DNA of 64,000 nt from Alphaproteobacteria bacterium (GTDB taxonomy: Bacteria > Pseudomonadota > Alphaproteobacteria > UBA828): the NCBI GenBank assembly GCA_963667785.2, contig CAXXMU010000006.1, forward strand, positions 1,141,779-1,205,778, written 5' to 3'. The notes beneath the pieces are model-generated. The model did not search any database, was not told the DNA's origin, and saw nothing but the letters and a program-made list of their open reading frames with translations. The position numbers and the translations under genes were made by a program. This document shows, in pieces, positions 14,145-46,907 of this stretch (within the stretch, counting starts at the first letter, position 1; the number at the start of each line of letters is the position of its first letter).

Positions 14145-14172
14145 GACGGGCTCCCTTCATGTAGCAGTTGGA

Positions 14173-28988: not shown

Positions 28989-29174
28989 ATGCCGGAGAAG
29001 ATCACCGATTTCGTGGTCCAATACCGCTTGCCAGACGGCTCGCCATGGACCGATCACGGCGGCCACGACGACCTCGAGGCGGCCCGCCGCTTCGTCGAAC
29101 GCCGGACGCCTGACGCAGATCGCGAGTGGCGCATCATGCGCCGAACGTGGACCCAGGTCGACTACGCCAGATAG
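28989..29174 (+). CDS. small hypothetical protein
   Basis: 61-aa ORF after the last motif copy. Confidence 0.5.
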   Translation: MPEKITDFVVQYRLPDGSPWTDHGGHDDLEAARRFVERRTPDADREWRIMRRTWTQVDYAR

Positions 29175-30589
29175 CCAACCGGCGTCTCGGGGTAGGCCAG
29201 CTCGCGGGGATCGTTGTAGCCCCGCCACCCCGGGGCAACGTAGTTGATCAGCAGCGTGCGCCGCACGCCTTCGATCGGGCGCGGCCGGAACCCGTGCCAT
29301 GTGTCGGAGGCCGGCACGAAGATGGCGCCGACGTTGTCGGCATAGGGCAGCCGCTTCGCTGGCGTCTCCGGATCGTGGAAGAGGTCGGTCCCCCAATCCG
29401 GGCCGTCGCCGCCCTCGTCCATGTAGATGAACATGGTGAACACCTTGTCCGCGATATCGGTGTGCGGCTTGCTCCAGTAGCCCTCCGTGTCGTGGGCGTA
29501 CTCGATCCGCAGGTAGGTGCCGGCCAGGTCGATGCCGCAGAACCGCTCGAGCGCCTCGGTCACCCGCGGACCCTGGAACGCTTCCGCCAGTGCGCGGGAC
29601 GAGGGCATGTCGCCGATGGCGCACGCATCGACGAACTGCCGCCCGGCATTGTGCTCCTGCCGGCAGCCGTGGTCGTAGTGGAGCTCGCGCGCCTGGGCGG
29701 GCCAGGCCTTGAGGCCGGCGAGTGTGTCGGGGTCGAGCACGTCCTCGAGGAGCCAGTGCCGGAACGGCTCGGCCTCCTCCTCGGCGCGCTGCAACGCGGA
29801 GAGGATGGCCGCCTCCGCCGCCGGCGTGCCGGTGCTCCGCCCGGCTGCCGCGACGGCTTGCACCGCCTTCGGCGCGCCCGCCCGGGCGGCTTCCTCGTGG
29901 TAGCGGAGGAACAGGTCCACGCAATCCCTGCGCTGATGGTCCCGCCTCTTCCCCTGATACCAGTGCTTGCGCGGGCGGTGCGAGACATTGCGCTGCACCG
30001 CGCTCCGAAGCCGCGCGTCCGCGAGCACCGCGGCGGGCTGCGTCGACATGTCCGTGAAGTGCAGCCCCTTGATCGCCTCGAGCGGCATGTCCTCGCCGTC
30101 GAGACAGTTCCACCGAGGATCAAGCTTGGCGATGTGCTCGCGCCCGATCGTGTCTTGAAGGCGGGCGTGCGCTCCGGAATCGCCCCTCATCGCCTCGATT
30201 GAGGGAAGTACCTCGCGCGCCGAAGCGCAATCGAAGACCGACACGCACAGGCGGCCCGGCCAGCGCGCCATGATGGGCTTGCCCCCCAGATCCGCATGCC
30301 AGAGCTCGGCCAGGTCGCCGAGCACGAGCACGTCGTTGTCCATGTAGATGGCGCGGCCCTCGTGGCCGGCGGCCTCCGGTACGGCCCAGCGGTATCCGCT
30401 GAACGGCGTGGCCCACCGGCGGCGATCCCAGCCCGCCCACGGGCCTTCCGAAGCGTCGGCGCGCATCCAGGTGATGTCGACAGGCAGCGAGCTGTGCTTT
30501 CTGGCGCTGTGTTCCAGCACGCGCTCCGTTTCCAGATCCATGCCGCCGGGGCTGGCACCGACGAAGAGCCTGATGGATCCTGCGCTCAT
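29162..30589 (-). CDS. GT8-like glycosyltransferase fused to 2OG-Fe(II) oxygenase
   Basis: WATPFSGYRW, AIYMDND (DxD), WNCLD and LHFT; C-terminal PHTD...WHGF...RRTL (HxD..H..R). Confidence 0.75.
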   Translation of the reverse strand: MSAGSIRLFVGASPGGMDLETERVLEHSARKHSSLPVDITWMRADASEGPWAGWDRRRWATPFSGYRWAVPEAAGHEGRAIYMDNDVLVLGDLAELWHADLGGKPIMARWPGRLCVSVFDCASAREVLPSIEAMRGDSGAHARLQDTIGREHIAKLDPRWNCLDGEDMPLEAIKGLHFTDMSTQPAAVLADARLRSAVQRNVSHRPRKHWYQGKRRDHQRRDCVDLFLRYHEEAARAGAPKAVQAVAAAGRSTGTPAAEAAILSALQRAEEEAEPFRHWLLEDVLDPDTLAGLKAWPAQARELHYDHGCRQEHNAGRQFVDACAIGDMPSSRALAEAFQGPRVTEALERFCGIDLAGTYLRIEYAHDTEGYWSKPHTDIADKVFTMFIYMDEGGDGPDWGTDLFHDPETPAKRLPYADNVGAIFVPASDTWHGFRPRPIEGVRRTLLINYVAPGWRGYNDPRELAYPETPVGYLA

Positions 30590-31374
30590 AGCTCGTACTT
30601 CTTCCACATGCTGTAGGTCGCCGGATCGGCCGTATTGACGTAGGGGCCGAGAAAATACTTCCGGTGCAGCGCGTCGTCGACGGCCCGGATTTCCTCGGTC
30701 GTCTTCCCGGCGCAGTGGGTGTCGTAGTAGGCGTTGAGCTTGCAGCGCTGGCACGTGCCGCAGGCGGGCGTCGAGGGGCACCGCACCGTGAGCGCCCACA
30801 ACGCCGCCGGGATGCGGCTCTGAAGCTCGAACCGGCCCACGCCGGAATATGTGCCGTCCTCATGGGCGGTGTAATACCCGCGATGGCGCAGCGGAATGCT
30901 CGTCTGCGCCTCGTAGTAAGGTACCCAGACCCGTTCCTGAAGGTCGTTGTCGGTGTCCCAGAGGCACATGCCGGTCAGCACCTCGTCGCACTCCCAGAGC
31001 TCGGCGTAATGCGCGAGCGTATGCAATTTCTCCTTGCCCCAGCAGACGTAGGCGTCGCTGGTCTGCGTGTAGCCCGTCCGGCAGGGCTGGAAATCGGGCT
31101 TCTCCAGGTCAGTACCGGCGGGCTTGCCCAGGACGACGAGATCGCCGTAGCGAACCTCTGAAATCGCCCGCACATTGGCGGAGAGCCATTCCGCGCAGGC
31201 CTTCGTGCTGTCCTTCTCGATTTGGGGGCGTCTCGATTCCGGCGGGTTGGAGCTGTAGTGGCGGGACTCGTCGAGGTTGAGCAGAATCACCTCGTTGTCG
31301 GTGTCGCGCAGCGTCTCGTAGGCGAGGGCGGTGCTCTCGACGCCGCCCCCGAAGCCGAGCAGGCTCTTGACCAT
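30586..31374 (-). CDS. QueC-like PP-loop (adenine nucleotide alpha hydrolase) protein
   Basis: N-terminal FGGGVEST (SGGxDS-like) and C-terminal C-x5-CGTCQRC zinc site; ATGA coupling with the GT gene. Confidence 0.6.
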   Translation of the reverse strand: MVKSLLGFGGGVESTALAYETLRDTDNEVILLNLDESRHYSSNPPESRRPQIEKDSTKACAEWLSANVRAISEVRYGDLVVLGKPAGTDLEKPDFQPCRTGYTQTSDAYVCWGKEKLHTLAHYAELWECDEVLTGMCLWDTDNDLQERVWVPYYEAQTSIPLRHRGYYTAHEDGTYSGVGRFELQSRIPAALWALTVRCPSTPACGTCQRCKLNAYYDTHCAGKTTEEIRAVDDALHRKYFLGPYVNTADPATYSMWKKYEL

Positions 31375-31376
31375 CC

Positions 31377-32279
31377 TCAGTTCTCCGGCTTCGGCGGGAG
31401 GTCGACGAGAGGTCGGCAGCGCGCGTGGATCTCCAGCGCCCGCACCTTGAACGCCGCGAACCGCTCTGTCGCGTCGGCGTCGCCGATGTCGAGCGGCACG
31501 TAGCCGGACCATGGGCACGAGAGCAGCCGGTCGACCGCCTCGGCCAATCCAAGGGAGCTCTGCCGGATCGCACGGTACAAAGCGTAATAGCGGCCCCTTG
31601 CCTCGTGCGAGTAGAGCGTGAAATCCACGATGCCCTTGCCCAGCAGGCCGGCCACGAGCCCCATCTCGCTCGCAGTGGTGTAGCCCACCACGTCCGCCTG
31701 CCGCAGCAGAGCCATGCCGCTCACGTTCTTCGGGTAGACCCGTGCCGGCCCGAGCGGGGCGACGAAGGCCTCGTGCACGAAATCGTCCGGCGTCACCGGG
31801 TGCGGCTTGCACATCCACGCAGCGTCGGTCTCGAAGGCCCTTCGCACGTTGTCGCCGCTCACCATGTAGCTCAGGTCCTCGCCTGGCGGGAACCATATCT
31901 TCCTGGCCGCCCCGGCATCCTCCGATATGTCGGCCGCCGCCCACTTGTCGGCGATGCTCCGCGCTATCGCCTCGGCCCTGCCGTGCTCGACCGTGCCGTT
32001 CCACACCAGCACCGCGTCCAGCGCGAGGCGCAGGTTCACCTCGGCCGACATCGGAGACGCGATGAACGTGCCGAATCCCTCCGTGTAGGCCCAGGCGAGG
32101 GGGATGGTCATGTCGACGACGTAACTGGCCACGTCGTAGACCGGAATGTCCGGGGCCATTACCCGGCGGAAAATCGCTTCCAGTCGCTCCAGGTCAGGCA
32201 GTGAACCGCGGCCATCCGAGGGTAGCCCCTCTTCCTTTCTGACTTCCGCCACGCTCTTGAGCATGAAGTCCATATTCAT
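31377..32279 (-). CDS. GT-B/capsule-synthesis (KpsC/S)-like protein
   Basis: KPHP...LLRQADVV...SEMGLVAGLLGK pattern. Confidence 0.5.
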   Translation of the reverse strand: MNMDFMLKSVAEVRKEEGLPSDGRGSLPDLERLEAIFRRVMAPDIPVYDVASYVVDMTIPLAWAYTEGFGTFIASPMSAEVNLRLALDAVLVWNGTVEHGRAEAIARSIADKWAAADISEDAGAARKIWFPPGEDLSYMVSGDNVRRAFETDAAWMCKPHPVTPDDFVHEAFVAPLGPARVYPKNVSGMALLRQADVVGYTTASEMGLVAGLLGKGIVDFTLYSHEARGRYYALYRAIRQSSLGLAEAVDRLLSCPWSGYVPLDIGDADATERFAAFKVRALEIHARCRPLVDLPPKPEN

Positions 32280-32329
32280 TATCGGATGGCTCCGTGACTC
32301 GGGTGATCGCCGCAGTCGGCCTCGGCAAC

Positions 32330-32344
32330 GGAATCCTTGTCAAG
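32330..32344 (-). promoter_or_regulatory. phage promoter-like motif upstream of the modification operon
   Basis: CTTGACAAGGATTCC. Confidence 0.6.
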
Positions 32345-32579
32345 TGGGCGCTTGACGGGGCTGCGCTAGGACGCCCCGGCGAAGCCGAAAGGCCATTTGG
32401 CGGGTAAGGCCCTTAGCGTAAAATGGTGCCAGCCATGGCAGTGATCTCCTATGCCTACCCAGCTAGGGACCCGCATTGCCGTGGCTAGCGTCCCAACTGG
32501 TGCCGGCGGTGCCGGTTGGGACACGCCTCCCCTTTCGGGACAAGGGCAAGCTCTTCATCGTGTTCGCCCTTCAAATGTC

Positions 32580-34688
32580 TCACACGACGCCCTGCACGGC
32601 GATGCGGGCCCGCGCGTAGATGCCATCGGTGTAATACACCTGCCAATCTCTCGCGAAGCCGTATGCCCAGCCGCGCACGCCTGCGGTGTAGTCGCCGACC
32701 CACAGAGCCCGCTTGCCGCCCCGGAACTCGTGCATGACGGTGGCGAACTTATCCAGGTCCCCCACGGGGACTTGCACGTCGAACCGATGGAGCGTCGTCG
32801 CGGAGCGCTGGATCGTCGTCAGATCGCCATAGATATTCGTCTCGACATGAGAGAAATCCAGACCCTCGAATCCGCTATCCCCGATCTGCGCGTCTCCAAC
32901 GTTCTGGGTGCTTCCCAGCACGGCTTGACCGCACGAGAGTTTGGCGCCGCCCGACAAGCTGAGCTCCACATAGTCCGCGATGTTTTCGTCAGGGATATCG
33001 CCGATGATCACGCCCCCGCTCTCATCGTCTACCGGCACGATCCGCGTGTAGATCACCGCGCCGGCCGGTCCGTTCCTCCTCAGCGTCACGGTGACGCTCG
33101 AGCAGTCGATCAAGTTGATCAGAGCCACCTCGTTGATGGTCTGCGGCGTGCTCGTGTTGCGGGTCATCGCGAAACTGGTGTTGCGGGACGAGGTGAAGGT
33201 CGTGGAGCGGGAGCCGAAGCGGGTGGCACGGCTCCCCGTGCTCGTCTGGCGGCTGGCGGCGCTCGTGCTCCGGCTCCCCGTGCTCGTGCTCCGCTGCGTG
33301 GCGGTGGTGTTGCGGGTGGTATAGACGGTGGAGCGGCTGGCGAGGTTCGTGCTCCGGCTCCCCGTGCTCGTGCTCCGCTGCGTGGCGGTGGTGCTGCGGG
33401 TCCCCAAGGAGGTACTGCGAATTTCGCTGACGAACTGGGTCGAGCGGGTCGTCGCCGTCGTGTTGCGGCTCCCCGTGCTGGTCGAGCGGGTGACGGTTCC
33501 CGTCGTATTTCTAACGCCGGCGTTGGTCGAGCGGCTGCCCGTGCTCGTGTTGCGCGTCGGCGTCGTGTTGCGGCTCACATTGGTCGAACGGCTGGCCTGC
33601 GTGGAGCGAAATTGGCCACGCTGGCCAGTGGTGTTGCGGGTGAAAGTGGTGTTGCGGGTGGTATAGACGGTGGAGCGGCTGGCGAGGTTCGTGCTCCGGC
33701 TGCCCGTGCTCGTGCTGCGGGTCAACTGCGTCGAGCGGGTGACGGTTCCCGTCGTGTTCCGGCTGCCGGTGCTGGTCGAACGGGTCGTCGCCGTCGTGTT
33801 GCGGCTCCCGTGCTCAGTCGTCACCCGGCTGCCCAGGCTCGTCTCGCGGCTGGAGACGGTGGTGTTGCGGCTCCCCGTGCTCGTGTTGCGCGTCGGCGTC
33901 GTGTTGCGGCTCACATTGGTCGAACGGCTGCTCGCGCTCGTCAGGCGGCTGCCCGTGCTCGTCTGGCGGCTGCCAGCGCTCGTGCTCCGGCTGCCCGTGC
34001 TCGTCTGGCGGCTCGAGATGCCGCTCGTAACGCGGCTGTCCTGAAAGCTCGTGTTCCGATTACCAATACCGGAGAGCGTCGTGCGGCTCAGCGCTCCCAG
34101 GTTAATCCCGGCCAGCAGGACATTGGGGTTGGTCGCCCCCTGAGATGGCCTTCCGTCGAACAGGCGCCACTTGTTCGTCTGTCCGATATAGACCCAGTGC
34201 AGCGGGTCTGGATCTTCCACCAGGGGATCGGCGACGGCGGCAGCTTCGGCGGTCGGGGAATTGGCGGCGGGAAGAGCCGAGCGTTCGACAGCGGCATTAT
34301 CGGCGACGGCAGCGTCAAGCCCGGCCCTGAGGGTGAGCGTTTCAGTATTGCGATCCACTGACTGCACGATGGCCGTCACCGTGCCCAATGTGATCGTGTC
34401 ACCTGCGTCGATGCCCGTATTCGCGGCCCCCACGTCATCCACAACGATGCTCGTCGCGCTTGCGGAGTAGCCACCGGACTTGTTCACACGGGTCGAGAAC
34501 GCGTCGCTCTCGCGCGAAGACGAGGTGTGGTCTCTGAGGGACTGATAGACAGAGTGCACGGACGAAATCATGCGATAGTCGCCGCGCTTCAGCGTCTGAC
34601 CGGCAGCCCACTCCGGGTAGTCGTTCTCCGTCAGATTTCCAGCGACGTACGCCGAGTCGGAAATCGGGATCGGCGAGATCACATCCAT
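32580..34688 (-). CDS. tail protein (post-TMP) with about 300-aa Ser/Thr/Arg repeat insert
   Basis: Globular ends (DYPEWAAG, TNKWRLFD; LDFSHVETNIYG) flank repeated (S/T)RxTxxx units. Confidence 0.75.
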   Translation of the reverse strand: MDVISPIPISDSAYVAGNLTENDYPEWAAGQTLKRGDYRMISSVHSVYQSLRDHTSSSRESDAFSTRVNKSGGYSASATSIVVDDVGAANTGIDAGDTITLGTVTAIVQSVDRNTETLTLRAGLDAAVADNAAVERSALPAANSPTAEAAAVADPLVEDPDPLHWVYIGQTNKWRLFDGRPSQGATNPNVLLAGINLGALSRTTLSGIGNRNTSFQDSRVTSGISSRQTSTGSRSTSAGSRQTSTGSRLTSASSRSTNVSRNTTPTRNTSTGSRNTTVSSRETSLGSRVTTEHGSRNTTATTRSTSTGSRNTTGTVTRSTQLTRSTSTGSRSTNLASRSTVYTTRNTTFTRNTTGQRGQFRSTQASRSTNVSRNTTPTRNTSTGSRSTNAGVRNTTGTVTRSTSTGSRNTTATTRSTQFVSEIRSTSLGTRSTTATQRSTSTGSRSTNLASRSTVYTTRNTTATQRSTSTGSRSTSAASRQTSTGSRATRFGSRSTTFTSSRNTSFAMTRNTSTPQTINEVALINLIDCSSVTVTLRRNGPAGAVIYTRIVPVDDESGGVIIGDIPDENIADYVELSLSGGAKLSCGQAVLGSTQNVGDAQIGDSGFEGLDFSHVETNIYGDLTTIQRSATTLHRFDVQVPVGDLDKFATVMHEFRGGKRALWVGDYTAGVRGWAYGFARDWQVYYTDGIYARARIAVQGVV
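33150..34090 (-). repeat. coding low-complexity heptad repeat (about 21 bp) with block duplications
   Basis: SRSTSTG/SRNTTAT/SRQTSTG units; duplicated DNA blocks at about 33307/33649 and 33541/33877. Confidence 0.85.
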
Positions 34689-34700: not shown

Positions 34701-37700
34701 CTAACTCATATCAATTTGTTGCTGCGTCGGCTGGTAGCGGTCGCGCCGCTGCTCGTCCAGCAGGTCGGCGCGCTGGCGGGCCGCACTGATGTTGCCCGCC
34801 TGCACCAGTTGGATCAGTTCGCGCAGCAGCGCGTTGATATCGCCGCCTGCCGGCTGCAAGTTGCGAAGCTCCGGCGCGCTCTTCACGAAGATTTCCTGCG
34901 AGAGCGAGCGGAACAGCCCCTGCGGCCCCTGAAGCGCGTCGTCAAGCGTCTGTGCTTCCCTCGTCACCTCGGCGAACTGGTCGGCGACCTTGATGAGCCC
35001 GGCGAAGAGCGCCCTGCCGGCCTCGGTGGTCAGGTCGGCACCCTCGACAAGAGCCCGGAACTCCCGGCGCGTGCGGGGCGCTGCAACTTCCAGCTCGAAG
35101 AACGCCTGCGCCAATTCTCGCCGGGTCCGGGCGATGCGCTCGTCCTCGGTGGAGAAGTTCTGATAGTAGCCGGCGAGGCCGGACAAGGCCTGATTCTCGT
35201 CACCGAACATGCCGCTGAGCTGGCGGCCGAGACGCATGAGGTCCTCGCTGAAATACTCCGTACCGAGGGTGATTTCGGCGAAGGCTTCATGCGCGAACCG
35301 TGCCGCCCGGAGGAACCCGTGAATCCGCCGCTCCTCCTGCCGTGCCGCCTCCGCAGCCCGCTCCCGCTGCGCCGCCAGGTCTGCCTCCAGCGCGATGAGC
35401 TGCTCTACCGAGCGCTGGTGTTCAAGCAGCGCCGCCTGCAGGGCTGTGCCTTCGCCTGCCGCCTCGATCTGCCGGCGGAACCCCTCAGCGCCGGACGTAT
35501 CGACACCGGCGCTGACGAGACGGTTCCGAAGCTGGTCGATCCGCTCCGCCCCGCCGAAGAAGGCTTCGCTCGACCGGAAGCTCTGCAGCAGGCTCGCACG
35601 CCGTTCCTTCTCGGCCTCCGCTGCACGCCGCGTCGCCTCGGCCGCTCGCGTGCGTTCGTCGGCAAGGCGCTCCTCGAGCGACGCCAACAGCTCGACCTGA
35701 CCCTGGTGCTCCAGCAGCGCCGCTCGCAGGGCCTCCCCTGCCGCCTCTACCTGCTCCCTGAACTCGGCGAGCGAGCCGGTGGCCACCCCGGTGGAGACCA
35801 GCTCGTTGCGGACCCGATCGGCCCGCTCCTGCAGGCTGAAGAACGCCTCGCTGGACTGGAAGTTCTGCAGCAGGGCCATGCGGCGCTGATCCTCGGCGCG
35901 CGCCGCCTGCTGCGCCGCCTCGGCACCCTGCGCCCGTTCTTCGGCAAGGCGCTTCTCATAATCGGCGAGAGTGCGCGCCGCCGCACTGTTTTCGAGCAGA
36001 GACACGTAGAGCTCGCGGCCTTCGTCGCCAAGCGCCGCCGCCGCTTCCACCGCTCCCCGGAATGTCTCCGCGACGTCGCCGGTCCCTTCGAGAAAGCCGG
36101 ACAACATCTCCTGGAGATTGGACGGCAGGCTGTCGAACAGCGCGCCCATCCGTTCGCCTTCGGAGTGGAAGCGCGAGCGATAAGAATCCTCGAGCTGGCG
36201 GATGCGTTCCTTCTCGGCCTCCGCTGCCTGCGCCGCTGCGCTCGCCGCCGCCGCCCTCTCGGCGGTCAGCCGCGCTTCATAGTCCAGGACAGCGTTGAAC
36301 CCGCCTGCGAGCTGCAGCAGCGCCGTGTAGAGCTCGCGCCCCTTCTCCGTGCTGAGGTCCTGAGCCTCGACCAGGGCGCGGTACTGCGCCGCGGTTTCCG
36401 GCATGGCGGTGTTGAGTTCGGCGAGCGCGTCGGTGATCCGCCGACGCGTGTCGTCCATGCGCTCGGCCTCGGAGTGGAAGGCCGTGTAGTACGTCTGGGC
36501 GGCGGACTGGAAATTGCCGACGCCGCCGAAACGCCCGGCCAGGTCCTCGGCGAGCAACGCACCGCCCACTCCCGTCGCGAACGGCGCGTGCCCCATGCTC
36601 TCGAGCACCGCGTTGACCCCGGTGAGCGCGCCGGCCAGCGTGGTCAGCCGCTCGGCCGCATCGCCGAGAGCAACCTCCAGCTCCGTGCCTTCGAGGGCGA
36701 AGGCCGCCATTTCGTTGCGGATGCCCCCGAGAACCTCCTCGACCTTGGCCTGCCGGGCGGCCTCGTCGAGGCCCTTCACGGAGAACCGGACTTCCGTGGT
36801 GAAGGTGCTGAGCGCGTCCGCCCCCAGCCCCAGCGCGGCCGCGGCGTCGGCGATCTCGGTGCGGATCGTGTCGACGGCCCCCCGTATGGGCGCCGCGTCC
36901 TCATCGGACAGGGTGCGCTCGTCGGTGAACCGGCTCCGCTTCAGACCGAACAGGCTTGATTTCTTGTAGCGATCGAAGGTCTGCACCAGCGTGTCCATCT
37001 CGGAGATGGAGAGGCCGATTTCCGAGTCGATCAGCGTCTTCTTCGACTGGAACACGCCGAGCAGCGCCATCGCGCCGACCACCACGCCGATGGCGGGCAG
37101 CGCCGCGCCGATGGTCGCGCCAAAGCCGCCGCCGGCGAGGCCTGCGTTCGTGCCGATGCTGAAAATGCCGGCACCGGAACCCATCGCCGCGCTGAGTCCG
37201 CCAGACAATCCCGTGCCATACGCCGACGCCGCAGCAGCATTCACGGCACTGAACGTCGCTGCGCTACCGACGCCCATGCCGATCGTCCCGGCCGCGCTGG
37301 TAGCTCCGCCTAGACCAAAGATACCGCCGAGTATGCCACCAGTTCCGGGGCCACTGGCTGACAGCAGGCCACCGGCTCCGAACAAGTCTCCGATGATACC
37401 GCCGCCGCTCGCAAGCTCGCTGATGCTGCTGAGCGTTGACCCGAGGGAACCCAAGCTGAGCAGATTCGCGAGGCCCCCGCCGCTGGCAATGCCGCCCGCG
37501 CCGAGCGCGTTGAGAACGCCGAGACCAAGGCCGACCTTTGGCCTTGAAGCCATCAGGTACATCATCATCAGGTTGCCAAGGTTGAGACCTCCATTGCCGA
37601 GATCGAAACCGCCGCCGAATGTCGGCAGCCCGGCACCGCTGCCCTGTGCCGCCGCCATGGCCCGCGCGTTGAACCAGTTGGCCATCGTGAGATCGCGTCC

Positions 37701-40466
37701 ACCCGACGCCGGAGCCGCGCCATCGCCCCGGAATGACGCGGGCCGGAAGCCGAACTGCGCGCCGGGCGGCGTGAGCCAGCGCGGCTGCATGCGGAAGTAG
37801 TAGTCCCGCATCTGGCGGTCGAGCTCGCGGTCCTGCGCGTCCCGGTCGCTGTAGCCGAAGCGCCCGCGCGCCAGCTCGTCGGCCGCTGTCAGGGGAGAAT
37901 CGCCGGTGCGGAGCCGGTCGGCCGAGCGCCGGCGCAGAATTTCCTCCACGGTGATTTCATCCAGCCGACGCATCACGTCGCGCATGTAATCGTCGGTCGA
38001 GCCGCCGATCTCGCGGGTGATGGCGCCCAGGCCCCGGACGCGCGGCAACACGCCCGGTCCGCGCTGGCGGAGGATGACGCCGAGCTGCCGCCGGGTCTCA
38101 TCCTCGGTCGCGGCCCGGTCCATCAACGCCTGCGGATCGATAATGCTGCCGTTGGCCAAGCCGCGCCGAATGCCCTCAGCGATCATCTCGTCGAGCTCCG
38201 GGAAGCCCGCGTTGTAGCGGTACTGCCTGCCGCCGGGTGCCGCCTGAGGATTCCATGTGCCAGATGCCCCGCCCCAGATCGGCATACCGATCTGCTGCAT
38301 GCCGCCGTGCGGCTCCTGCCACCACGTCGGCGGGTCGCCAGTTGACCGAAAACCCGACCTCTCTCCGCCCCGATCGAGGTAGGTGGGCCGCGGCTCGAAC
38401 CCCGGGACTGTGACGGCGGTCGCCGCGCCTCCGAACAGCAAGGACATGAGCGGCTTGGCCGCGGCCTGGGCGATCATGTCGGCCAAGAGCCGCCTGAAGG
38501 CATCCTTCACCCGGTCCGTGAAACTCTTGAAGTCGTCGAAGCCGCCCGCCACCCAGTCGCCCCAGGCCGTGGCGATGTCGCCGACAAGGGTGTTCATGCG
38601 CCGGAATGCGGGCTCGTTCGCAGCGATCTGCGCGTCGAGCCGCGCCAGCCTCTCGTACTTGGCGATCAGCGTGTCGCGGGCCTTTCCCGTGATCCTGGCC
38701 CGGTCGAGCTCGACCTCGAACAGCTCGCGCTGGATCGCGGCCTCGGCCCGCCTCACCTGCACGCTGTCCCGACCGTAGGCCAGAATCGCCTCGCTCACTG
38801 TGGTTTGGTGCGAGAGAGAACGCGAGATGTTGGCCTCGGCCTCCAGCCGTCGTTGCGCCTCGCGGACAGTCCGCTCGAACTCGCGCTGCATCTTGCGCTC
38901 GGCGGCCTCCTGCGCCCTCTTCTCCTCCGACACCCGCTTTTCCCAACGGGCCCGGTCCTTGGAGAGCTGGAGACCCTCGATTTCCATCTCCAGGGCTGCC
39001 CGCAGTAGCCGGGCGATGTCCTCCGAGAGGTTGCGCCGCTCGATCTCGCCTTCGAGAGCCGCACGCATCGCGTCGTAACGCGCGTGCTCGGCGTCCAGGG
39101 AGTCCTTGCCGTACTTCCCCTCGACCTGGGCCACCTTGGCCCGCTCCTGCATGGTGGCGAGCTGCCTGGCCGCCCACTCGGCGTTCCGCCTGGCCGCGTT
39201 CGCCGCATCGTCTTCGGTCTCGATCGTCCGATCCGCCTGCGCCTGGCGCTCGCGCGCCATCTTGAGCAGGTTCACGTAGATTTCGAGCTGGTCCTCCTCC
39301 TGCGCCGTCACCTCGCCGTCGGCCCTGGCCAGCTTCTGCGTCGTGGCGATCAGCGCCTCCAGGACGTCGACCTGCGCGTCGAGATCGGTGCCGGAACGCG
39401 CGAGCGCCTCGTTGTGCTCGATCCACTCCTGCCGCAGGTCTGCGACCTTGGACTGTGCCTCCTCGGTCCGCCGTGCGTACTCCTCCATCTCCTCGGTGAA
39501 CTGCCGCGCCTGCTCCGGCCGGGGTCCGAAGCCCTGGAATATGTCGGCAGCGTTGATGTCCGGCGGCGCGGTGAACTGTCGCTGTGCCCTCTCCAGCTTG
39601 TCGAACACGGGCCCGAGATTGAACAGGGCATCGGCGCCGCCCTGGACGTCGGTGAAGAAGCCGCTGATGTCGCCCAGCGCCGCCTCGCCGGCGGCCGCGA
39701 TCTGCCGCCCAAGCCTGCGCCCCTCGATCTGGCGGACGATCTCGAGGTACTCGCGCATCCGCTCGGTGCCCGCCCCGAAGCGGTCGGTCATGTCCTCCAT
39801 GCTGAGGGTGGCGTCGTCGGTCGCCGACTTGAGGTCGCCCAGCGCGCCCTCGGCATCCTCGAGCACGTCGGCAAGCGAGCGGGTCTCGCCCCCCGCGGTG
39901 ATGGCCCCGAACACCCACTGCCCGAACGCGGCACCGCCCGCGATCAAGCCGACGGTCACCAGGCTCAACGGGGAGATGATGGAGGTGAAGGCGCTTACCA
40001 GCGTCTGACGCAGCGGGGCGCCAGTGGCTCGCATCTGCGTCAGGACCTGGTTGACCTGAGTGCCCTGCTGCACCGCCAGCAGAAACGGTGACTGGCCGCT
40101 CGCCATCATCACGCCGATATCGTTGAACTGAGCCGCCAGATTGGCCGTCGCGAAGCCGGCGGTGGAGCTGGTCCGCGTGTAGGCCTGACCATGCGCGTTG
40201 GTGCGCCTCATGGCCGCGCCATAGCTGCTCAGCGAGCCGGTCGCCGCCCGCGCCTGGGCGACCATGTTCTGGGTGGCGGAGCCTGCTTGCCTCACCCCGC
40301 CCGCCATGCTCCGCGCGCCGGCGCCCGCACGCTGGGTGCCGCTGGCGACACCCTCGACGGCCGCGTCCGCGCGCTGGCCCGCCCGCGCCGTCTCGTCCAG
40401 CGCGGTTTCCAGCCTCTGGAAATCGGACGTATCCAGGCGGGCGGATACTGTGTGGACGTCGGTCAT
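34701..40466 (-). CDS. tail tape measure protein (1921 aa)
   Basis: TANLAAQFNDIGVMMASGQSPFLLAVQQGTQ motif; Ala/Gly-rich helical; follows the chaperone genes. Confidence 0.9.
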   Translation of the reverse strand: MTDVHTVSARLDTSDFQRLETALDETARAGQRADAAVEGVASGTQRAGAGARSMAGGVRQAGSATQNMVAQARAATGSLSSYGAAMRRTNAHGQAYTRTSSTAGFATANLAAQFNDIGVMMASGQSPFLLAVQQGTQVNQVLTQMRATGAPLRQTLVSAFTSIISPLSLVTVGLIAGGAAFGQWVFGAITAGGETRSLADVLEDAEGALGDLKSATDDATLSMEDMTDRFGAGTERMREYLEIVRQIEGRRLGRQIAAAGEAALGDISGFFTDVQGGADALFNLGPVFDKLERAQRQFTAPPDINAADIFQGFGPRPEQARQFTEEMEEYARRTEEAQSKVADLRQEWIEHNEALARSGTDLDAQVDVLEALIATTQKLARADGEVTAQEEDQLEIYVNLLKMARERQAQADRTIETEDDAANAARRNAEWAARQLATMQERAKVAQVEGKYGKDSLDAEHARYDAMRAALEGEIERRNLSEDIARLLRAALEMEIEGLQLSKDRARWEKRVSEEKRAQEAAERKMQREFERTVREAQRRLEAEANISRSLSHQTTVSEAILAYGRDSVQVRRAEAAIQRELFEVELDRARITGKARDTLIAKYERLARLDAQIAANEPAFRRMNTLVGDIATAWGDWVAGGFDDFKSFTDRVKDAFRRLLADMIAQAAAKPLMSLLFGGAATAVTVPGFEPRPTYLDRGGERSGFRSTGDPPTWWQEPHGGMQQIGMPIWGGASGTWNPQAAPGGRQYRYNAGFPELDEMIAEGIRRGLANGSIIDPQALMDRAATEDETRRQLGVILRQRGPGVLPRVRGLGAITREIGGSTDDYMRDVMRRLDEITVEEILRRRSADRLRTGDSPLTAADELARGRFGYSDRDAQDRELDRQMRDYYFRMQPRWLTPPGAQFGFRPASFRGDGAAPASGGRDLTMANWFNARAMAAAQGSGAGLPTFGGGFDLGNGGLNLGNLMMMYLMASRPKVGLGLGVLNALGAGGIASGGGLANLLSLGSLGSTLSSISELASGGGIIGDLFGAGGLLSASGPGTGGILGGIFGLGGATSAAGTIGMGVGSAATFSAVNAAAASAYGTGLSGGLSAAMGSGAGIFSIGTNAGLAGGGFGATIGAALPAIGVVVGAMALLGVFQSKKTLIDSEIGLSISEMDTLVQTFDRYKKSSLFGLKRSRFTDERTLSDEDAAPIRGAVDTIRTEIADAAAALGLGADALSTFTTEVRFSVKGLDEAARQAKVEEVLGGIRNEMAAFALEGTELEVALGDAAERLTTLAGALTGVNAVLESMGHAPFATGVGGALLAEDLAGRFGGVGNFQSAAQTYYTAFHSEAERMDDTRRRITDALAELNTAMPETAAQYRALVEAQDLSTEKGRELYTALLQLAGGFNAVLDYEARLTAERAAAASAAAQAAEAEKERIRQLEDSYRSRFHSEGERMGALFDSLPSNLQEMLSGFLEGTGDVAETFRGAVEAAAALGDEGRELYVSLLENSAAARTLADYEKRLAEERAQGAEAAQQAARAEDQRRMALLQNFQSSEAFFSLQERADRVRNELVSTGVATGSLAEFREQVEAAGEALRAALLEHQGQVELLASLEERLADERTRAAEATRRAAEAEKERRASLLQSFRSSEAFFGGAERIDQLRNRLVSAGVDTSGAEGFRRQIEAAGEGTALQAALLEHQRSVEQLIALEADLAAQRERAAEAARQEERRIHGFLRAARFAHEAFAEITLGTEYFSEDLMRLGRQLSGMFGDENQALSGLAGYYQNFSTEDERIARTRRELAQAFFELEVAAPRTRREFRALVEGADLTTEAGRALFAGLIKVADQFAEVTREAQTLDDALQGPQGLFRSLSQEIFVKSAPELRNLQPAGGDINALLRELIQLVQAGNISAARQRADLLDEQRRDRYQPTQQQIDMS

Positions 40467-43320: not shown

Positions 43321-43342
43321 ACGGGGCTCCTTCTTTCGTCAG

Positions 43343-43429
43343 AGCCATCGTCGGCCGGTCGGTGCCGCATCGCGCGGCGATTCCGTGAGTCGCGCGGGAC
43401 GCTAGAGCCGCTCCGGAATCCTTGTCAAG
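43343..43429 (-). promoter_or_regulatory. promoter TTGACA-N18-TAGCGT plus conserved leader (copy 2)
   Basis: Near-identical to 14173-14257. Confidence 0.7.
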
Positions 43430-43662
43430 CGCTATGGCCGAACGGTAGTGCCTCAGTTTGAAATCTGAGGGTTGATAGCAGTCTTCTACGAAGGCGCCGG
43501 TGCGCCCCCTAGCTGAATGCTCGTTTTCCCCGCAATTCGCGGATTCGTTCCCCAAGTCCTACCGTGATCCACATGCCCCCCTTCCTCCCAGCCTCTGTCA
43601 GACACCCTATGACGTACGATATTGTTCCTCCCTGATCCGCACCGTGAAGAGGAGAGCGAATC

Positions 43663-43950
43663 ATGGGAATCGCTCCAGGGAGCGAAATCGAGGTCCCGTG
43701 CGATGTCACGCAGGGTGCCTTCAAGAATGAGCGTCTGGTGACGATCAAGACGGCGATCGGACCGATCACCGGGTTCATCGACAACCACTTGGTGAAAATT
43801 GACGACGACAACGCACACAGAGGCGTGATTAGGGGCACTGTCCGAGAGGTGAGAGCCGACGGACTTGTTTCGGTAGTCTTTTCTGGATCGTTCCTGAACA
43901 CTAATGGCCTTGCTCAGTTCGCCAGGGACGACCTGAGAGAAGCATCATGA
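43663..43950 (+). CDS. hypothetical passenger protein
   Basis: GAGGAG RBS; ATGA coupling to dcd. Confidence 0.6.
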   Translation: MGIAPGSEIEVPCDVTQGAFKNERLVTIKTAIGPITGFIDNHLVKIDDDNAHRGVIRGTVREVRADGLVSVVFSGSFLNTNGLAQFARDDLREAS

Positions 43951-44287
43951 TTCTGAGTCGCGAGGGCATTGAGAAAGAGGTTGCTGATGGACGGATCAAA
44001 TTCGATCCTCCCCTAGAAGACAAACAATGGGGGCCAGCCTCGGTCGATCTCAGGCTTGGACATGAATTCACTTGGTTCAAGAATCTACCAGGACTGACGG
44101 TATCACTTGCTGAAGGTATCCAGGCGCTTGGTGGTCTCGAGCTTTGGGACCGGACAGAGGTGAACGGTAATGGCAGGCCTGGTGGTTCGCCAGGGTTTGA
44201 TATTGGGGATTATAGACAATAGTCCCAATTTCTGCTTGACCTCGCTGCGACTCGGGCGCACAATAGTCCCAATTGATGGAGGGCGGC

Positions 44288-45235
44288 ATGGCGAAGAGAG
44301 CACCGGGAAAGAGCCATCGCGAGGGCATCAGCTTGGCCAAGCTGATGCGGATGTTCCCGGACAACGAGGCGTCCCAGGCTTGGTTGGAGAAGCATATCTG
44401 GCCTGACGGACCACACTGCCCCCATTGTGGATCGACCAACGTCCAGTGTGGCATCAAGCACAACACGATGACGCATCGCTGCCGGGACTGCCCGAACCGG
44501 CCGCAGTTCAGCCTCAAGACGGGCACCGTCATGCAGGGATCGAACCTCGGCTACCAGACTTGGGCCATCGCCATCTATCTCGTGACGACGAACCTGAAGG
44601 GCGTCGCCGCGATGAAGCTGCATCGCGACTTGGAGATTTCCTACAAGTCGGCGTGGCATCTGGCACACCGTCTCCGCAAGGCATTCGAGGATGACGGCAA
44701 CCCGCTGTTCACTGGCCCCGTGGAGGCCGACGAGACGTATATCGGCGGGAAGCGCAAGAACATGCCCAAGAGCAAGCGCGCGAAGCTGACGGGGCGCGGA
44801 GCGGTCGGAAAGGCCATCGTCATGGGCACCAAGGACCGCGACACCAACCGGATCGCCGCACGCGCCATCGAGAGCACCGACGGTGCGACGCTCAAGGGCT
44901 TCATCGCCGAGCACGCCGCGCCGGGCGCAACGGTCTACACCGACGACCACGGCGGCTACGAGGGAATGGACTTCGACCACGAGGCGGTGAACCACAGCGC
45001 CGGCGAATATGTCCGCGGGATGGCCCATACGCAGGGGATCGAATCCTTCTGGGCCATGCTCAAGCGGGGGTATCAGGGCACCTTCCATCACTTCAGCGAA
45101 AAGCACTTGGACCGCTATGTGTCGGAGTTCGCAGGCCGGCACAACATTCGGGAGAAGGACACCGCGGACCAGATGGGGCACCTCGCCAAGGAAATGGTGG
45201 GGAAGCGCCTGCGGTATCGCGATCTGATCCGGTAG
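44288..45235 (+). CDS. IS1595-family (ISXO2-like) transposase
   Basis: Zn ribbon CPHCG..CRDC; VEADETYIGG, VYTDD, HTQGIESFW and YVSEF motifs. Confidence 0.92.
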   Translation: MAKRAPGKSHREGISLAKLMRMFPDNEASQAWLEKHIWPDGPHCPHCGSTNVQCGIKHNTMTHRCRDCPNRPQFSLKTGTVMQGSNLGYQTWAIAIYLVTTNLKGVAAMKLHRDLEISYKSAWHLAHRLRKAFEDDGNPLFTGPVEADETYIGGKRKNMPKSKRAKLTGRGAVGKAIVMGTKDRDTNRIAARAIESTDGATLKGFIAEHAAPGATVYTDDHGGYEGMDFDHEAVNHSAGEYVRGMAHTQGIESFWAMLKRGYQGTFHHFSEKHLDRYVSEFAGRHNIREKDTADQMGHLAKEMVGKRLRYRDLIR

Positions 45236-45238
45236 GGG

Positions 45239-46123
45239 TTGTCTCCGATGAGCGCTCAGGCTGCGCTCGCACTCGCGGATGATCTGTGCCTCCCGGATTT
45301 CATCATTGAGTGTCGCGACAATCTCGATTTCATGGCTCGGCTGGACGATGGCAGTTTCAAGCTGATCGTCACCTCGCCTCCCTACAATCTCGGAAAGTCC
45401 TACGGCAATGATCGCCGCTCGTTGGACGCCTACTTGGCAGACCAGCAACGTGTGATCGCTGAGTGCGTGCGGTTGCTGGAAGACGGCGGCTCGATCTGCT
45501 GGCAGGTGGGCAACTATGTCGAGAACGGAGAGATCATCCCGCTCGATACGTTGCTCTATCCCCTCTTCGCCGCTCATGGCCTCAAGCTGCGGAACCGGAT
45601 CATCTGGCACTTCGGGCACGGTCTGCACTGTACCCATCGCCTGTCGGGCCGATACGAGACGATCAACTGGTGGACCAAGGGTGACGACTACACTTGGAAT
45701 CTCGATCCGATCCGCGTCCCGTCGAAGTACCCCAACAAGCGCTACTTCAAGGGGCCGAAGGCGGGCCAGCTTTCATGCAATCCGAAGGGCAAGAACCCAT
45801 CCGACGTGTGGGTCTTCCCGAACGTCAAAAACAACCACCCGGAGAAGACCGCGCATCCCTGCCAATACCCGGTCGAGCTGGTCGAGCGGCTGGTGTTGTC
45901 TATGACCGACGAGGGCGATGCGGTGTTTGATCCCTATTTGGGAGTCGGATCGTCCGCGATCGCTGCCCTGAAGCATGGTCGGGTTGCCTATGGCTGCGAC
46001 ATCATCCCGGCCTATGTTGAGCTCGCGCTGGAGCGCATCGAATCGCTGGCAGAGGGGACGCTGAAGACGCGCCCGATGGACAAGCCGATCTATGACCCAT
46101 CGTTGCCGCGCGGTGGACACTGA
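45239..46123 (+). CDS. site-specific amino-methyltransferase (beta class, N4-C/N6-A)
   Basis: TSPPYN catalytic motif precedes HPCQYP and DPYLGVGS SAM-binding motif. Confidence 0.9.
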   Translation: MSPMSAQAALALADDLCLPDFIIECRDNLDFMARLDDGSFKLIVTSPPYNLGKSYGNDRRSLDAYLADQQRVIAECVRLLEDGGSICWQVGNYVENGEIIPLDTLLYPLFAAHGLKLRNRIIWHFGHGLHCTHRLSGRYETINWWTKGDDYTWNLDPIRVPSKYPNKRYFKGPKAGQLSCNPKGKNPSDVWVFPNVKNNHPEKTAHPCQYPVELVERLVLSMTDEGDAVFDPYLGVGSSAIAALKHGRVAYGCDIIPAYVELALERIESLAEGTLKTRPMDKPIYDPSLPRGGH

Positions 46124-46734
46124 TGCGCGTTGCAGCCCGGTATTCGCACCTCAACGGCGTCGAGTACCTGATGGTCCATCACCCGCAGCTTCTTGATGAG
46201 GTGGAGCGCGTCGTCGCGAACGTCGATGCGCTTGCCTGCAAGACCAAGGTGTCCAAGGAGAAGCGGATGGAGGGTCAGACGCTCTTTGCGCCCAAGGAGA
46301 TGAACAAGGCGTTCAAGCGTGAATTCGTAGCGTTCGGCTGGGAGGCTGCACGGCGAACATTCTGGGTAGCCGCTGATGAGGCGCTGATGCGCCGTACTCA
46401 CCACCTGTCGCCCGAAGAGCAGAAGGCAGCCATCACGGCCGCCGGTCACGAGCCGATCCAGTCGCGGAATGAGACCGACTTTGTGAAGGATCGGGTCGCC
46501 GTCGAGGTTCAGTTCGGAAAGTACGCCTTCGTGGCGCACGATCTCTTCGTGAAGCATCTGAGCTTCTTCGTGTCCGATGTTATCGACGTTGGCATTGAGA
46601 TTCTGCCCATGAAGAGCATGGAGCAGGAAATGTCGTCCGGGGTGCCCTACTTCGAGCGCGACCTGGTGAACGTCATCCGGCAGGGGCGCGGTGTGCCTGC
46701 CGTTCCCTTGATCCTACTTGGAGTAGAGCCATGA
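46123..46734 (+). CDS. BglII/BstYI-family type II restriction endonuclease
   Basis: NETDFVKDRVAVEVQFGKYAFVAHDLFVKH; TGATG coupling to the MTase. Confidence 0.8.
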   Translation: MRVAARYSHLNGVEYLMVHHPQLLDEVERVVANVDALACKTKVSKEKRMEGQTLFAPKEMNKAFKREFVAFGWEAARRTFWVAADEALMRRTHHLSPEEQKAAITAAGHEPIQSRNETDFVKDRVAVEVQFGKYAFVAHDLFVKHLSFFVSDVIDVGIEILPMKSMEQEMSSGVPYFERDLVNVIRQGRGVPAVPLILLGVEP

Positions 46735-46907
46735 CCGAGAAAGCAGCGCCGCGTGAGGTTCGCGTGAAGCCGATGAGCTATCGCCCGATCAAGGCGGAAA
46801 TGGAAGAGCCTGTCGTGATCCGCAAGGCGGACGGCAGCCCGGTCTCTCCCGAGGAACTGGCGCGCTCGCTCGGGCCGGTCAAACTCGTTGAGGACCAAGG
46901 CGCTTAG
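46731..46907 (+). CDS. small IS passenger protein
   Basis: MTEKAAPREVRVKPMSYRPIKAEMEE...; ATGA overlap with the REase. Confidence 0.5.
   Translation: MTEKAAPREVRVKPMSYRPIKAEMEEPVVIRKADGSPVSPEELARSLGPVKLVEDQGA

Follow-up and report, generated by a model that had tools for sequence, protein, structure and literature searches.

Virion glycosylation as known from mycobacteriophages, a group of actinophages, affects capsid and tail-tube proteins and relies on glycosyltransferase families other than those treated here. Phage-encoded glycosyltransferases of mycobacteriophages are described, for Maravista among others, as thought to decorate structural proteins (PMC11256854). In the cytoplasmic O-glycosylation of the serine-rich-repeat (SRR) adhesin (GtfA/B with a GT8 enzyme such as GlyE) and autotransporter heptosyltransferase (AAH/TibC) systems, the repetitive adhesin adjoins its own glycosyltransferases. 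The AAH/TibC systems draw on the LPS precursor pool. GlyE is described as a GT8 enzyme with UDP-Gal as donor (PMC10709319). In the lysyl hydroxylase LH3/PLOD3 a GT-A glycosyltransferase and a 2OG-Fe(II) oxygenase share one polypeptide, whose target is a repeat protein. Mimivirus L230 is likewise a bifunctional hydroxylase-glycosyltransferase.

Here we describe a prophage locus in a 64,000-nucleotide stretch of an alphaproteobacterial genome (the window), where a tail protein carrying a long repeat is followed by three enzyme-like genes, A, B and C. The proposed arrangement is that of the SRR and AAH/TibC systems, but the priming enzyme is of another family and the repeat is based on Arg and Thr, cationic and presumably carried on the virion. 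Compared with mycobacteriophage virion glycosylation, the locus combines a Gram-negative host and a Kdo-transferase-like glycosyltransferase with a putative dedicated repeat acceptor and PP-loop and oxygenase partners.

A repeat array inserted in a tail protein

The tape measure gene (34701-40466, minus strand) encodes 1921 aa (Pfam TMP_2 PF06791, E 4.5e-10; best PHROG match E 7e-45), and eight of the nine PHROG families matched by its product are tape-measure families. Directly downstream, after a 12-nt gap, lies the gene of a 702-aa protein (32580-34688, minus strand) that matches phrog_6278 (E 1.7e-27) in three stretches of the 306-aa profile. The phrog_6278 parts are N-terminal (residues ~1-186) and C-terminal (~506-702), with a repeat insertion between them. 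Weak colinear matches connect the protein to post-tape-measure proteins of 307 aa and 592 aa from Vibrio phages 1.177.O and 381E49-1.

The insertion (33144-34088, minus strand; residues 201-515) spans 315 aa and consists of 46 Arg-anchored units, R-(S/N)-T-(S/T)-x-x-(S/T), of which 25 are 7 aa long, nine are 6 aa, seven are 8 aa and five have other lengths. Identity autocorrelation peaks at lags 7, 14, 21 and 28 (0.315 at lag 7 versus 0.07-0.17 at lags 1-6), and TRF reports periods of 21 and 42 nt in the underlying DNA. Thr, Ser and Arg make up fractions of 0.29, 0.23 and 0.15 of the stretch, which contains no Lys, only 3 Pro and 17 N-x-S/T sequons. Thr occupies the +2 position of 44 of the 46 repeat Arg (unit position 3), while shuffles of the same residues yield 13.1 +/- 2.9 R-x-T and reach 44 in 0 of 2000 cases. 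When all six frames of the 4.09-Mb genome are scanned, the repeat-protein ORF has 15 R-x-T per 100 aa and the next best ORF 9; the former is the sole R-x-T-dense ORF of the genome, which speaks for the glycosylation reading developed below. The first-pass annotation had described about 300 aa of (S/T)R-x-T heptads after the tape measure, as is indeed found, but its term "mucin-like" is loose for a strongly cationic stretch with a net charge of about +42. Its suggestion of shielding from an animal host finds no support in the data examined.

Operon layout and a shared motif

Genes A, B and C follow the repeat gene in this order on the minus strand and are tightly packed, with a 2-nt gap between A and B and a 4-nt overlap between B and C. 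The 300-bp gap between the repeat gene and gene A holds a copy of a prophage-specific motif, CTTGACAAGGATTCC (32330-32344, minus strand), which includes the -35-like hexamer TTGACA. The compact operon with its own motif copy at 32330 had been noted in the first-pass annotation. At up to 2 mismatches the window contains the motif 8 times, always on the minus strand, against a chance expectation of 0.12; at up to 1 mismatch, 7 of 7 genome-wide matches fall inside the window. Seven of the eight sites lie 16-74 nt upstream of the called start of the next gene or tRNA, and the remaining one overlaps the preceding ORF at its 3' end. Beyond the operon, seven further minus-strand prophage genes or blocks have the motif at or shortly before them, including the terminase, portal, major capsid and tail module. 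From this placement we infer a promoter-like role. The adjacency, common strand, tight packing and structural-gene motif all count in favor of glycosylation of the repeat protein. None of A, B, C and the repeat protein has a hydrophobic segment (maximum KD19 1.31), which fits a reaction in the cytoplasm.

Gene A resembles beta-Kdo transferases

Gene A (31377-32279, minus strand) encodes a 300-aa GT-B protein of phrog_26179. Foldseek with its AF2 model (pLDDT 87.5) placed WbbB and KpsC first (E 4e-5 to 5e-4). In VIA the model matched KpsC with Z 10.6 over 226 aligned residues (rmsd 3.8), KrkA with 9.7 and WbbB with 9.6; the best 15 rows were all Kdo transferases (Z 9.1-10.6 over 200-229 residues), whereas generic GT-B structures reached at most 8.0 and aligned over one domain only (~110-125 aa). 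The modeled fold is best matched, over both domains, by the retaining beta-Kdo transferases KpsC, WbbB and KrkA, which bears out the first-pass assignment to a GT-B or capsule-synthesis-like type. This match and the invariant motif described next favor glycosylation.

In the alignment of 14 A-type sequences, with identity down to 27%, K158, H160 and P161 of a K-x-H-P motif are invariant, as are E205 and D111-K112, which suggests a kept ligand-binding or active site. The (K/R)xHP motif is described as that of enzymes using CMP-activated sugars (PMC12887879). Gene A shares this motif and the two-domain fold with KpsC (GT107), WbbB (GT99) and KrkA (GT140), but is only 300 aa long, has 10-17% identity to them in structural alignments and lacks QXXXD: in the profile alignment neither the Q nor the D (the Asp nucleophile) of the GT99/GT107/GT140 motif is conserved in the A family. 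This absence counts against glycosylation, and A may therefore use another mechanism or be non-catalytic. Against marine Capsule_synth relatives, hhalign aligned the A family with Prob 92.8 and E 3.9e-7, setting FPPGEDL opposite FPCQLPHD. The acceptors of KpsC, WbbB and KrkA are lipid-linked or glycan and not protein; A, unlike these enzymes, is encoded beside Thr-rich R-x-T proteins in phages. The donor would perhaps be CMP-Kdo from the host, whose genome contains one CTP_transf_3 cytidylyltransferase and no NeuB family member, a point in favor of glycosylation.

A-type genes lie close to R-x-T proteins in other genomes

Six A-type contexts have readable neighbors: the window prophage, Caulobacter phages Lullwater, BL198 and Cr30, Vibrio phage KVP40, and an Acidobacteriota locus that is non-phage. 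In all six, the A-type gene is preceded, by no more than two genes, by that of a Thr-rich, R-x-T-enriched protein. R-x-T occurs at 11 of 14 Arg in Lullwater gp41 and at 5 of 5 in a 116-aa protein of Cr30 (0 of 2000 shuffles reach either value), at 15/23, 20/25 and 14/21 Arg in the Acidobacteriota paralogues (at most 1 of 2000 shuffles each), at 8 of 12 in BL198 gp046 (8 of 2000 shuffles) and at 9 of 16 in KVP40.0254 (23 of 1000 shuffles). Comparable enrichment appears in none of the 22 other annotated neighbors at the Lullwater and Cr30 loci, nor in any of the 13 further KVP40 genes that were tested. The pair lies downstream of tail fibre genes in the Caulobacter phages. About 5 kb upstream of the A paralogues, the Acidobacteriota locus has KdsA-like and KdsD-like genes, which add to the evidence for a Kdo donor.

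KVP40 also encodes a QueC-like protein two genes downstream of its A-like gene. The B-family profile does not match this protein even when E values up to 1 are allowed, and the KVP40 cluster runs on into NAPRTase-like and radical-SAM genes; both points weigh against glycosylation. Homologues of A and B, and homologues of A and the GT8 domain of C, appear to lie on common contigs, judged by equal contig sizes (65351 and 123587). The first-pass proposal, with the repeat protein as target of the enzymes, thus gains support for A from the six contexts, and in part for B from KVP40 and the common contig.

Gene neighborhood alone does not distinguish a substrate from a structural partner. A could be a non-catalytic relic of the Kdo-transferase fold, serving the R-x-T Thr-ladder fibre as a chaperone, assembly factor or structural partner, with B and C as unrelated cargo; we regard this as quite improbable. 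It would agree with the missing QXXXD, with the position of the A/R-x-T pair where tail-fibre assembly genes usually lie, and with the degenerate PP-loop of B, but sits poorly with residues held invariant across the A family and with the apparent joint travel of A, B and GT8 homologues and the QueC-like gene of KVP40. KrkA, moreover, is described as evidence that the catalytic residues of this fold can change position (PMC12887879).

Genes B and C

Gene B (30586-31374, minus strand) encodes a 262-aa divergent QueC-like PP-loop ATPase with a C-terminal four-Cys cluster. Its family is small and divergent, with 47 representatives among 1.84 billion. The family profile matches QueC 2pg3 in the PDB (E 6.1e-5) across the PP-loop and Cys cluster, and the nearly invariant C199/C205/C208/C211 align with the Cys region of 2pg3. 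Pfam QueC matches 17 of 32 family members weakly; B itself has no Pfam or NCBIfam QueC match even at E up to 10. The family consensus of the PP-loop is SGGxDS, while B carries GGGVES, and the opening positions also differ among its four nearest relatives; the degenerate loop of B counts against glycosylation. B shares its architecture with QueC (7-cyano-7-deazaguanine synthase), as the first-pass annotation had proposed, but differs in the altered PP-loop and in its company: Pfam detected no QueD, QueE, FolE or tRNA-guanine transglycosylase/DpdA among the 54 scanned proteins of the window, all above small-ORF size.

Gene C (29162-30589, minus strand) encodes a 475-aa fusion of a GT8-like domain and a P4H-like 2OG-Fe(II) oxygenase, in line with the first-pass annotation; no other such fusion was found among the protein lengths searched. 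The N-terminal domain (29864-30589, minus strand; residues 1-242) falls just short of the Pfam GT8 cut-off (24.0 versus 24.3 bits), the match covering residues 70-108 of the DxD region with its Y-M-D-N-D segment. It has 32 standalone homologues of 261-293 aa that span this half of C only, two of them with precomputed PF01501 annotation, and its profile finds the GT8 enzyme GlyE 5gvv as best PDB match (E 0.009), with likeness confined to the DxD region.

The C-terminal domain (29162-29827, minus strand; residues 255-475) has 2034 standalone homologues of ~217 aa. Its H-x-D...H iron triad, H122, D124 and H178 in domain numbering, is invariant in 52 sequences, and its AF2 model (pLDDT 92.1) adopts the double-stranded beta-helix fold; the Pfam match (PF13640 type) is weak (E 0.046). 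Foldseek ranks PolD 9blq (E 3e-11) and PasI 9ei6 (E 3e-9) first, followed by Tpa1/OGFOD1, P4H, PHD2 and LH3 (6teu, E 1.4e-5), with TM 0.65-0.73 for PolD, PasI, Tpa1 and OGFOD1. C resembles LH3/PLOD3 in its fused architecture, with the repeat protein only a proposed target, and departs from LH3 in its other glycosyltransferase family, in an oxygenase closest to PolD/PasI, and in a repeat without Lys and nearly without Pro. The substrates of PolD and PasI are sugar-acid nucleosides and not proteins, which argues against the glycosylation reading.

Relatives of the GT8 domain on marine phage contigs (38-48% identity) were traced in 80 metagenomic loci, amid genes for primase, thymidylate synthase, ribonucleotide reductase, dNMP kinase and SAM-decarboxylase-like proteins. 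Neither B nor the 2OG domain has a homologue in any of the 80 loci, and R-x-T proteins were not seen in them either. Among the 46 loci with enough downstream sequence, A' (Capsule_synth-type glycosyltransferases alongside) occurs in 21 and X in 35. These DNA-metabolism neighborhoods count against glycosylation of the repeat; such occurrence apart from S/T-repeat genes, which the first-pass annotation had named as contrary evidence, is thus seen in part, for the GT8 domain.

The same neighborhoods would suit enzymes that modify phage DNA or the nucleotide pool by a deazapurine-type, QueC-like route, with the base then hydroxylated and glycosylated. QueC belongs to the preQ0 pathway, the best 2OG fold matches act on nucleoside sugar acids, and radical-SAM genes lie near the KVP40 cluster. 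We nevertheless consider this highly unlikely: the deazapurine partners are missing among the 54 window proteins scanned, no TET, JBP or AlkB chain appears among the best 49 Foldseek ranks listed for the P4H-like domain or in PDB sequence searches, the operon is joined to the tail module, whereas the replication module lies apart on the opposite strand, and the pairing of A with R-x-T proteins would be left without explanation.

Envelope remodeling during infection is an unlikely explanation too, although LPS or capsule counterparts exist for all three enzyme types and the fold of A is KpsC/WbbB-like. A, B and C would then act on the LPS inner core or a Kdo-built capsule linker, which might block superinfection or keep progeny virions from sticking to debris, and the R-x-T protein, with its high positive charge, would be a polycationic fibre binding anionic glycans and not an acceptor. 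One GT8 homologue (P0031) is named lipopolysaccharide biosynthesis glycosyltransferase by its source, chromosomal 2OG homologues are paired with an ELM1-type (PF06258) gene, and the marine GT8 relatives lie alongside Capsule_synth-type glycosyltransferases without R-x-T proteins. The operon, however, bears the structural-gene motif and does not lie in a moron-like island, and the R-x-T ORF upstream of A-type genes in six of six contexts, one of them non-phage, goes unexplained. The products of the operon also have no membrane segment, although the same solubility or peripheral location is known for KpsC and WbbB.

Discussion

On the gene content and neighborhoods, we give about even chances to the reading in which A, B and C glycosylate the R-x-T tail appendage. 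The locus would be a late-expressed prophage module for post-translational modification, most likely glycosylation, of a tail-tip appendage, the substrate being the post-tape-measure protein with the 315-aa cationic R-x-T-(S/T) array inserted in one of its loops. The anatomy, folds and conserved neighborhoods are established here; that the repeat serves as acceptor, which sugar it receives and in which sequence the steps occur is our inference. In the cytoplasm, the soluble GT-B protein A would recognize the R-x-T units and transfer an ulosonic acid to them, the donor being most plausibly CMP-Kdo of the host. The GT8 domain of C would then add a hexose, and its 2OG domain would oxidize the sugar acid or a repeat residue. 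Finally, the QueC-like B would activate a carboxylate with ATP, for example for amidation of the sugar acid. The occurrence of an A-type gene beside Thr-rich proteins in several unrelated phages points to a possible, so far undescribed mechanism by which phages decorate their tail fibres.

Organization of the prophage and its tail operon

The prophage extends from ~9.3 kb to at least 51.2 kb of the window. At 9.4-23.7 kb the minus strand encodes the small and large terminases, the portal, the scaffold, the major capsid protein, the head-tail adaptor and a protein with an SLT domain; a replication block occupies the plus strand at 23.8-28.9 kb, and a minus-strand tail block spans 43.3 to 29.2 kb. 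The tail block encodes, in this order, two major-tail-like proteins, a chaperone, a tail-completion protein, a 1921-aa tape measure, the repeat protein (32580-34688) and three enzymes: the GT-B protein A (31377-32279, phrog_26179), the QueC-like protein B (30586-31374) and the GT8-oxygenase fusion C (29162-30589). A second tail module of myovirus type (GpD-like, GpU-like, tape measure, tube and sheath) adjoins the prophage at 52600-64000.

The first-pass annotation assigned the A-B-C operon its own copy of a structural-gene promoter motif. The motif is real, while its action as a promoter is putative. With up to two mismatches, the 15-nt sequence CTTGACAAGGATTCC occurs at eight sites in the window, all on the minus strand (0.12 expected by chance); with up to one mismatch, all seven matches in the genome fall inside the window. 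The sites lie upstream of a MuF-like head protein, a 119-aa gene, the tail block, A, the portal, the capsid gene and tRNA-Met, and the remaining one is at the 3' end of the ORF directly above the large terminase. Downstream of the motif copies before the major capsid gene and the tail block, the leaders (14150-14257 and 43325-43429, minus strand) have a long conserved stretch in common that reaches the start codon, a possible common 5' UTR or regulatory element of the two most highly expressed structural genes. Motif copies at 43415 and 47823 flank an island within the prophage (43660-47310, plus strand) that carries an IS1595-family transposase, an N6/N4 DNA methylase, a BglII-like restriction endonuclease and a dCTP-deaminase-like fragment. 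The tRNA-Met gene (11054-11128, minus strand) also lies within the prophage, directly downstream of the motif copy at 11154.

An R-x-T array inserted into a distal-tail protein

The repeat protein (702 aa) begins 12 nt past the tape measure gene. Its ends match phrog_6278, a 306-aa PHROG profile without assigned function (E 1.7e-27), and are colinear with a 307-aa protein of Vibrio phage 1.177.O whose gene comes directly after that for the tape measure, so the repeat has been inserted into a conserved distal-tail protein. The whole protein has no match in the phage database, and the end domains alone gave only weak Vibrio phage matches there (E 0.05-0.08), which we retained because they are colinear and syntenic. 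No relatives from the same order were found: a comparison of the C-terminal domain with 49 genomes matched the window's own genome only.

The insertion (residues 201-515) is built from 46 units anchored on Arg. Of these, 25 measure exactly 7 aa, and Thr occupies position 3 in 44 of the 46; the consensus unit is R-S-T-S-T-G-S. Its composition is strongly biased (T 0.29, S 0.23, R 0.15, three Pro and no Lys), giving a net charge of about +42. The R-x-T pattern occurs 44 times, against 13.1 +/- 2.9 in shuffled sequences of the same composition, and none of 2000 shuffles reaches 44. No other ORF of the 4.09-Mb genome comes near this density, and an Atlas search with the repeat returned no usable match. 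In four sequencing runs, all from one study and available in contig form, breaks fall within the repeat and no variants are seen. The plus strand opposite the repeat (33052-34044) contains three high-GC3 ORFs; we rejected them as genes and regard them as a by-product of the repeat's codon pattern, and the minus-strand frame is fixed because the end domains have homologues.

Another insertion is found in Vibrio phage 381E49-1, where the homologue of the post-tape-measure protein (5645-7423 of locus L114) carries ~290 aa of D-G-N-I-Y-type repeats at a site different from that of the R-x-T insertion. This insertion looks like a beta-propeller, and the post-tape-measure protein apparently acts as a platform open to display insertions.

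A resembles Kdo transferases and accompanies R-x-T proteins

A (300 aa) belongs to no Pfam family and has nine homologues in a word-indexed search of 5.8 billion clusters. Both domains of its structure model (pLDDT 87.5) match retaining beta-Kdo transferases (KpsC, Z 10.6; KrkA, 9.7; WbbB, 9.6), whereas ordinary GT-B enzymes match one domain only, with Z <=8.0. The K-x-H-P motif is invariant across the A family; the relevant passages of PMC12887879 give it as a CMP-binding motif common to Kdo transferases and sialyltransferases. The QXXXD nucleophile motif of the beta-Kdo transferase families is not conserved, and A is therefore not filed as a member of these families. As modelled, A has a Kdo-transferase fold and nucleotide-binding motif, and it may use another catalytic mechanism or be non-catalytic. 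The missing QXXXD is also among the points in favour of other readings, one of which takes A for a non-catalytic partner of the fibre, a role we consider quite unlikely.

The gene neighbourhoods of A relatives provide the main comparative evidence for a link with R-x-T proteins. In the Caulobacter podoviruses Lullwater and BL198, a tail fibre gene is followed by a 215-217-aa Thr-rich protein, an A-type gene and a holin; in the T4-like Caulobacter phage Cr30, fibre-like proteins are followed by a 116-aa Thr/Tyr-rich protein, an A-type gene and neck proteins. IMG/VR scans with A revealed nothing beyond Cr30. An A-like gene is present in 35 Vibrio phage records. In one of these, KVP40, the order is a 197-aa protein with abundant S-R-S-T and T-R-S-T units, a 72-aa gene, the A-like gene, a 210-aa gene and a QueC-like gene (Pfam QueC, E 3.4e-9). 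An Acidobacteriota chromosome harbours three tandem units, each with a ~500-aa Thr-rich protein (32-34% Thr in the C-terminal half) followed by two A paralogues, and KdsA-like and KdsD-like genes are located ~5 kb upstream in one of them. These units (L111-L113, from a metagenome-assembled chromosome) span ~20 kb each and also hold a 281-aa gene and a gene for a protein of 2260-2340 aa that combines LRR and M66-peptidase domains; upstream there is a gene with a phage-lysozyme domain, and the units are separated by transposases.

In every Thr-rich partner protein, Arg with Thr at +2 is found far above the shuffled expectation, and the other neighbours tested (22 in two Caulobacter loci, 13 in KVP40) are not enriched. 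An A-type gene thus has an R-x-T-enriched, Thr-rich neighbour in all six readable contexts (the window, Lullwater, BL198, Cr30, KVP40 and Acidobacteriota). The count covers these six out of a larger set, to which further Caulobacter and Vibrio records and eight more A homologues on metagenomic contigs belong. Judged solely by equal contig size, homologues of A and B seem to share a 65351-bp contig, and homologues of A and the GT8 domain a 123587-bp contig.

B, C and their relatives

The family of B (262 aa) is small (47 representatives out of 1.84 billion) and has a PP-loop and four conserved Cys; the best solved relative by profile is QueC (E 6.1e-5), and the PP-loop of B itself is degenerate. 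Neither the phage database nor a scan of genome contigs contained a match to B. The IMG/VR scan found one T4-like contig, L029, where a B-family gene is flanked by fibre-like and neck genes and lacks an R-x-T neighbour. A Gly-rich low-complexity protein of 222 aa is encoded two genes upstream (L029, 7960-8625), and an upstream 294-aa protein with an H-T-D motif was rejected by hhalign as a 2OG oxygenase.

C (475 aa) joins a GT8-like domain (residues 1-242), whose family elsewhere consists of ~270-aa proteins, to an oxygenase domain (residues 255-475) from a very large family of standalone ~217-aa oxygenases (2034 matches) with an invariant H-x-D...H triad. Over the length range 261-832 aa, no other GT8-oxygenase fusion was found. 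Structurally, the modelled oxygenase domain (pLDDT 92.1) comes nearest to PolD and PasI, followed by protein prolyl and lysyl hydroxylases; both PolD (PMC5365060) and PasI act on eight-carbon sugar-acid nucleosides. Within the same genus, eight genomes have a standalone homologue that shares an operon with a PF06258 (ELM1-type) gene. At chromosomal loci of this genus (L021-L026), the 217-aa oxygenase is 58-60% identical to the C-terminal domain of C and forms a conserved pair with the PF06258 (Mito_fiss_Elm1) gene. A was rejected as a relative of this ELM1-type partner (hhalign Prob 0.2).

The GT8 domain of C has 386 relatives in metagenome contigs, the best 80 of which were analysed as loci. 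Five of the six annotated loci sit among primase, thymidylate synthase, ribonucleotide reductase, dNMP kinase or SAM-decarboxylase-like genes, and the sixth (L076) has other neighbours. Among the 46 loci with at least 2.5 kb downstream, a second GT-A-like gene is present in 35 and a distant A relative scoring as Pfam Capsule_synth in 21. In the marine phage-like contigs (L031-L110) these genes form a cassette—a GT8-like gene, a second GT-A-like gene with a T-D-I-D-C motif and a Capsule_synth-type glycosyltransferase (L083, 9977-12541; L040, 9968-12696, with the last two genes fused)—that adjoins SAM-decarboxylase-like genes inside DNA-metabolism modules. No homologue of B or of the oxygenase is present in the best 80 loci, and no R-x-T protein was seen in them. 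The co-occurrence of enzyme families with R-x-T proteins, which the earlier annotation had proposed as a check, is therefore borne out for A-type genes but not for GT8 relatives.

Since no R-x-T protein was seen at the GT8 loci with a Capsule_synth-type gene, GT8 and a Kdo-transferase-like enzyme can occur as a pair where repeat proteins are absent, and the target of such a pair could be DNA or the envelope. This is among the points that favour remodelling of the host envelope by A, B and C, which we regard as unlikely, and, together with the DNA-metabolism neighbours, modification of DNA or nucleotides, which we regard as highly improbable. The alternatives jointly, including a non-catalytic A, draw on the QXXXD gap in A, the degenerate PP-loop of B, the resemblance of the oxygenase to enzymes acting on small molecules, and the presence of radical-SAM and NAPRTase-like genes beside the KVP40 cluster.

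Proposed modification of the R-x-T array

Modification of the R-x-T array by the operon is the reading we put forward, with its chances about evenly balanced. The operon would be expressed late, alongside the structural genes, and the array would be modified in the cytoplasm, ahead of tail assembly. A would place an ulosonic acid as primer on the Thr adjoining Arg, an anionic sugar at each Arg would neutralise the +42 charge, and B and C would then elaborate the glycan. CMP-Kdo appears to be the only CMP-activated ulosonate that the host can make, since its genome (98% complete) has one CTP_transf_3 gene and no NeuB. We know of no precedent for O-linked Kdo on protein.

A wider proposal, which we advance tentatively and hold to be rather doubtful, is that of a conserved protein-glycosylation system in unlike phages (Caulobacter podoviruses, a Caulobacter T4-like phage, KVP40-like vibriophages and a siphovirus-like prophage) and at least one Acidobacteriota chromosome. 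A Kdo-transferase-like GT-B enzyme would transfer Kdo from the host's pool of LPS precursors to R-x-T threonines of a dedicated tail-fibre-associated protein; in the prophage, QueC-like amidation and elaboration by the GT8-oxygenase would yield a tail appendage with an LPS-core-like glycan coat.

Phage virion glycosylation and the glycosylation of adhesin repeats are known kinds of system. In the literature searched on phage Kdo transferases, Thr-rich tail fibres and virion glycosylation, we found no description of the pairing of A with R-x-T proteins, nor of the A enzyme family, the R-x-T acceptor motif, the phage range or the enzyme combination. The words 'glycosyl' and 'threonine' are absent from the main text of the article on Caulobacter phages PMC11053796.

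If the pairing is one of enzyme and substrate, it would define a motif, R-x-T, and an enzyme family for decorating the receptor-binding appendages of phages of Gram-negative hosts, in which virion glycosylation is hardly studied. Lullwater, Cr30 and KVP40 are cultivable laboratory phages and allow direct tests by mass spectrometry and gene knockouts. The proposal, if true, would give a function to phrog_26179 and to the small QueC-like family, both now without annotation. It would also mean that a phage diverts an essential LPS precursor into its own particle, with a bearing on adsorption, host range and recognition of the virion.
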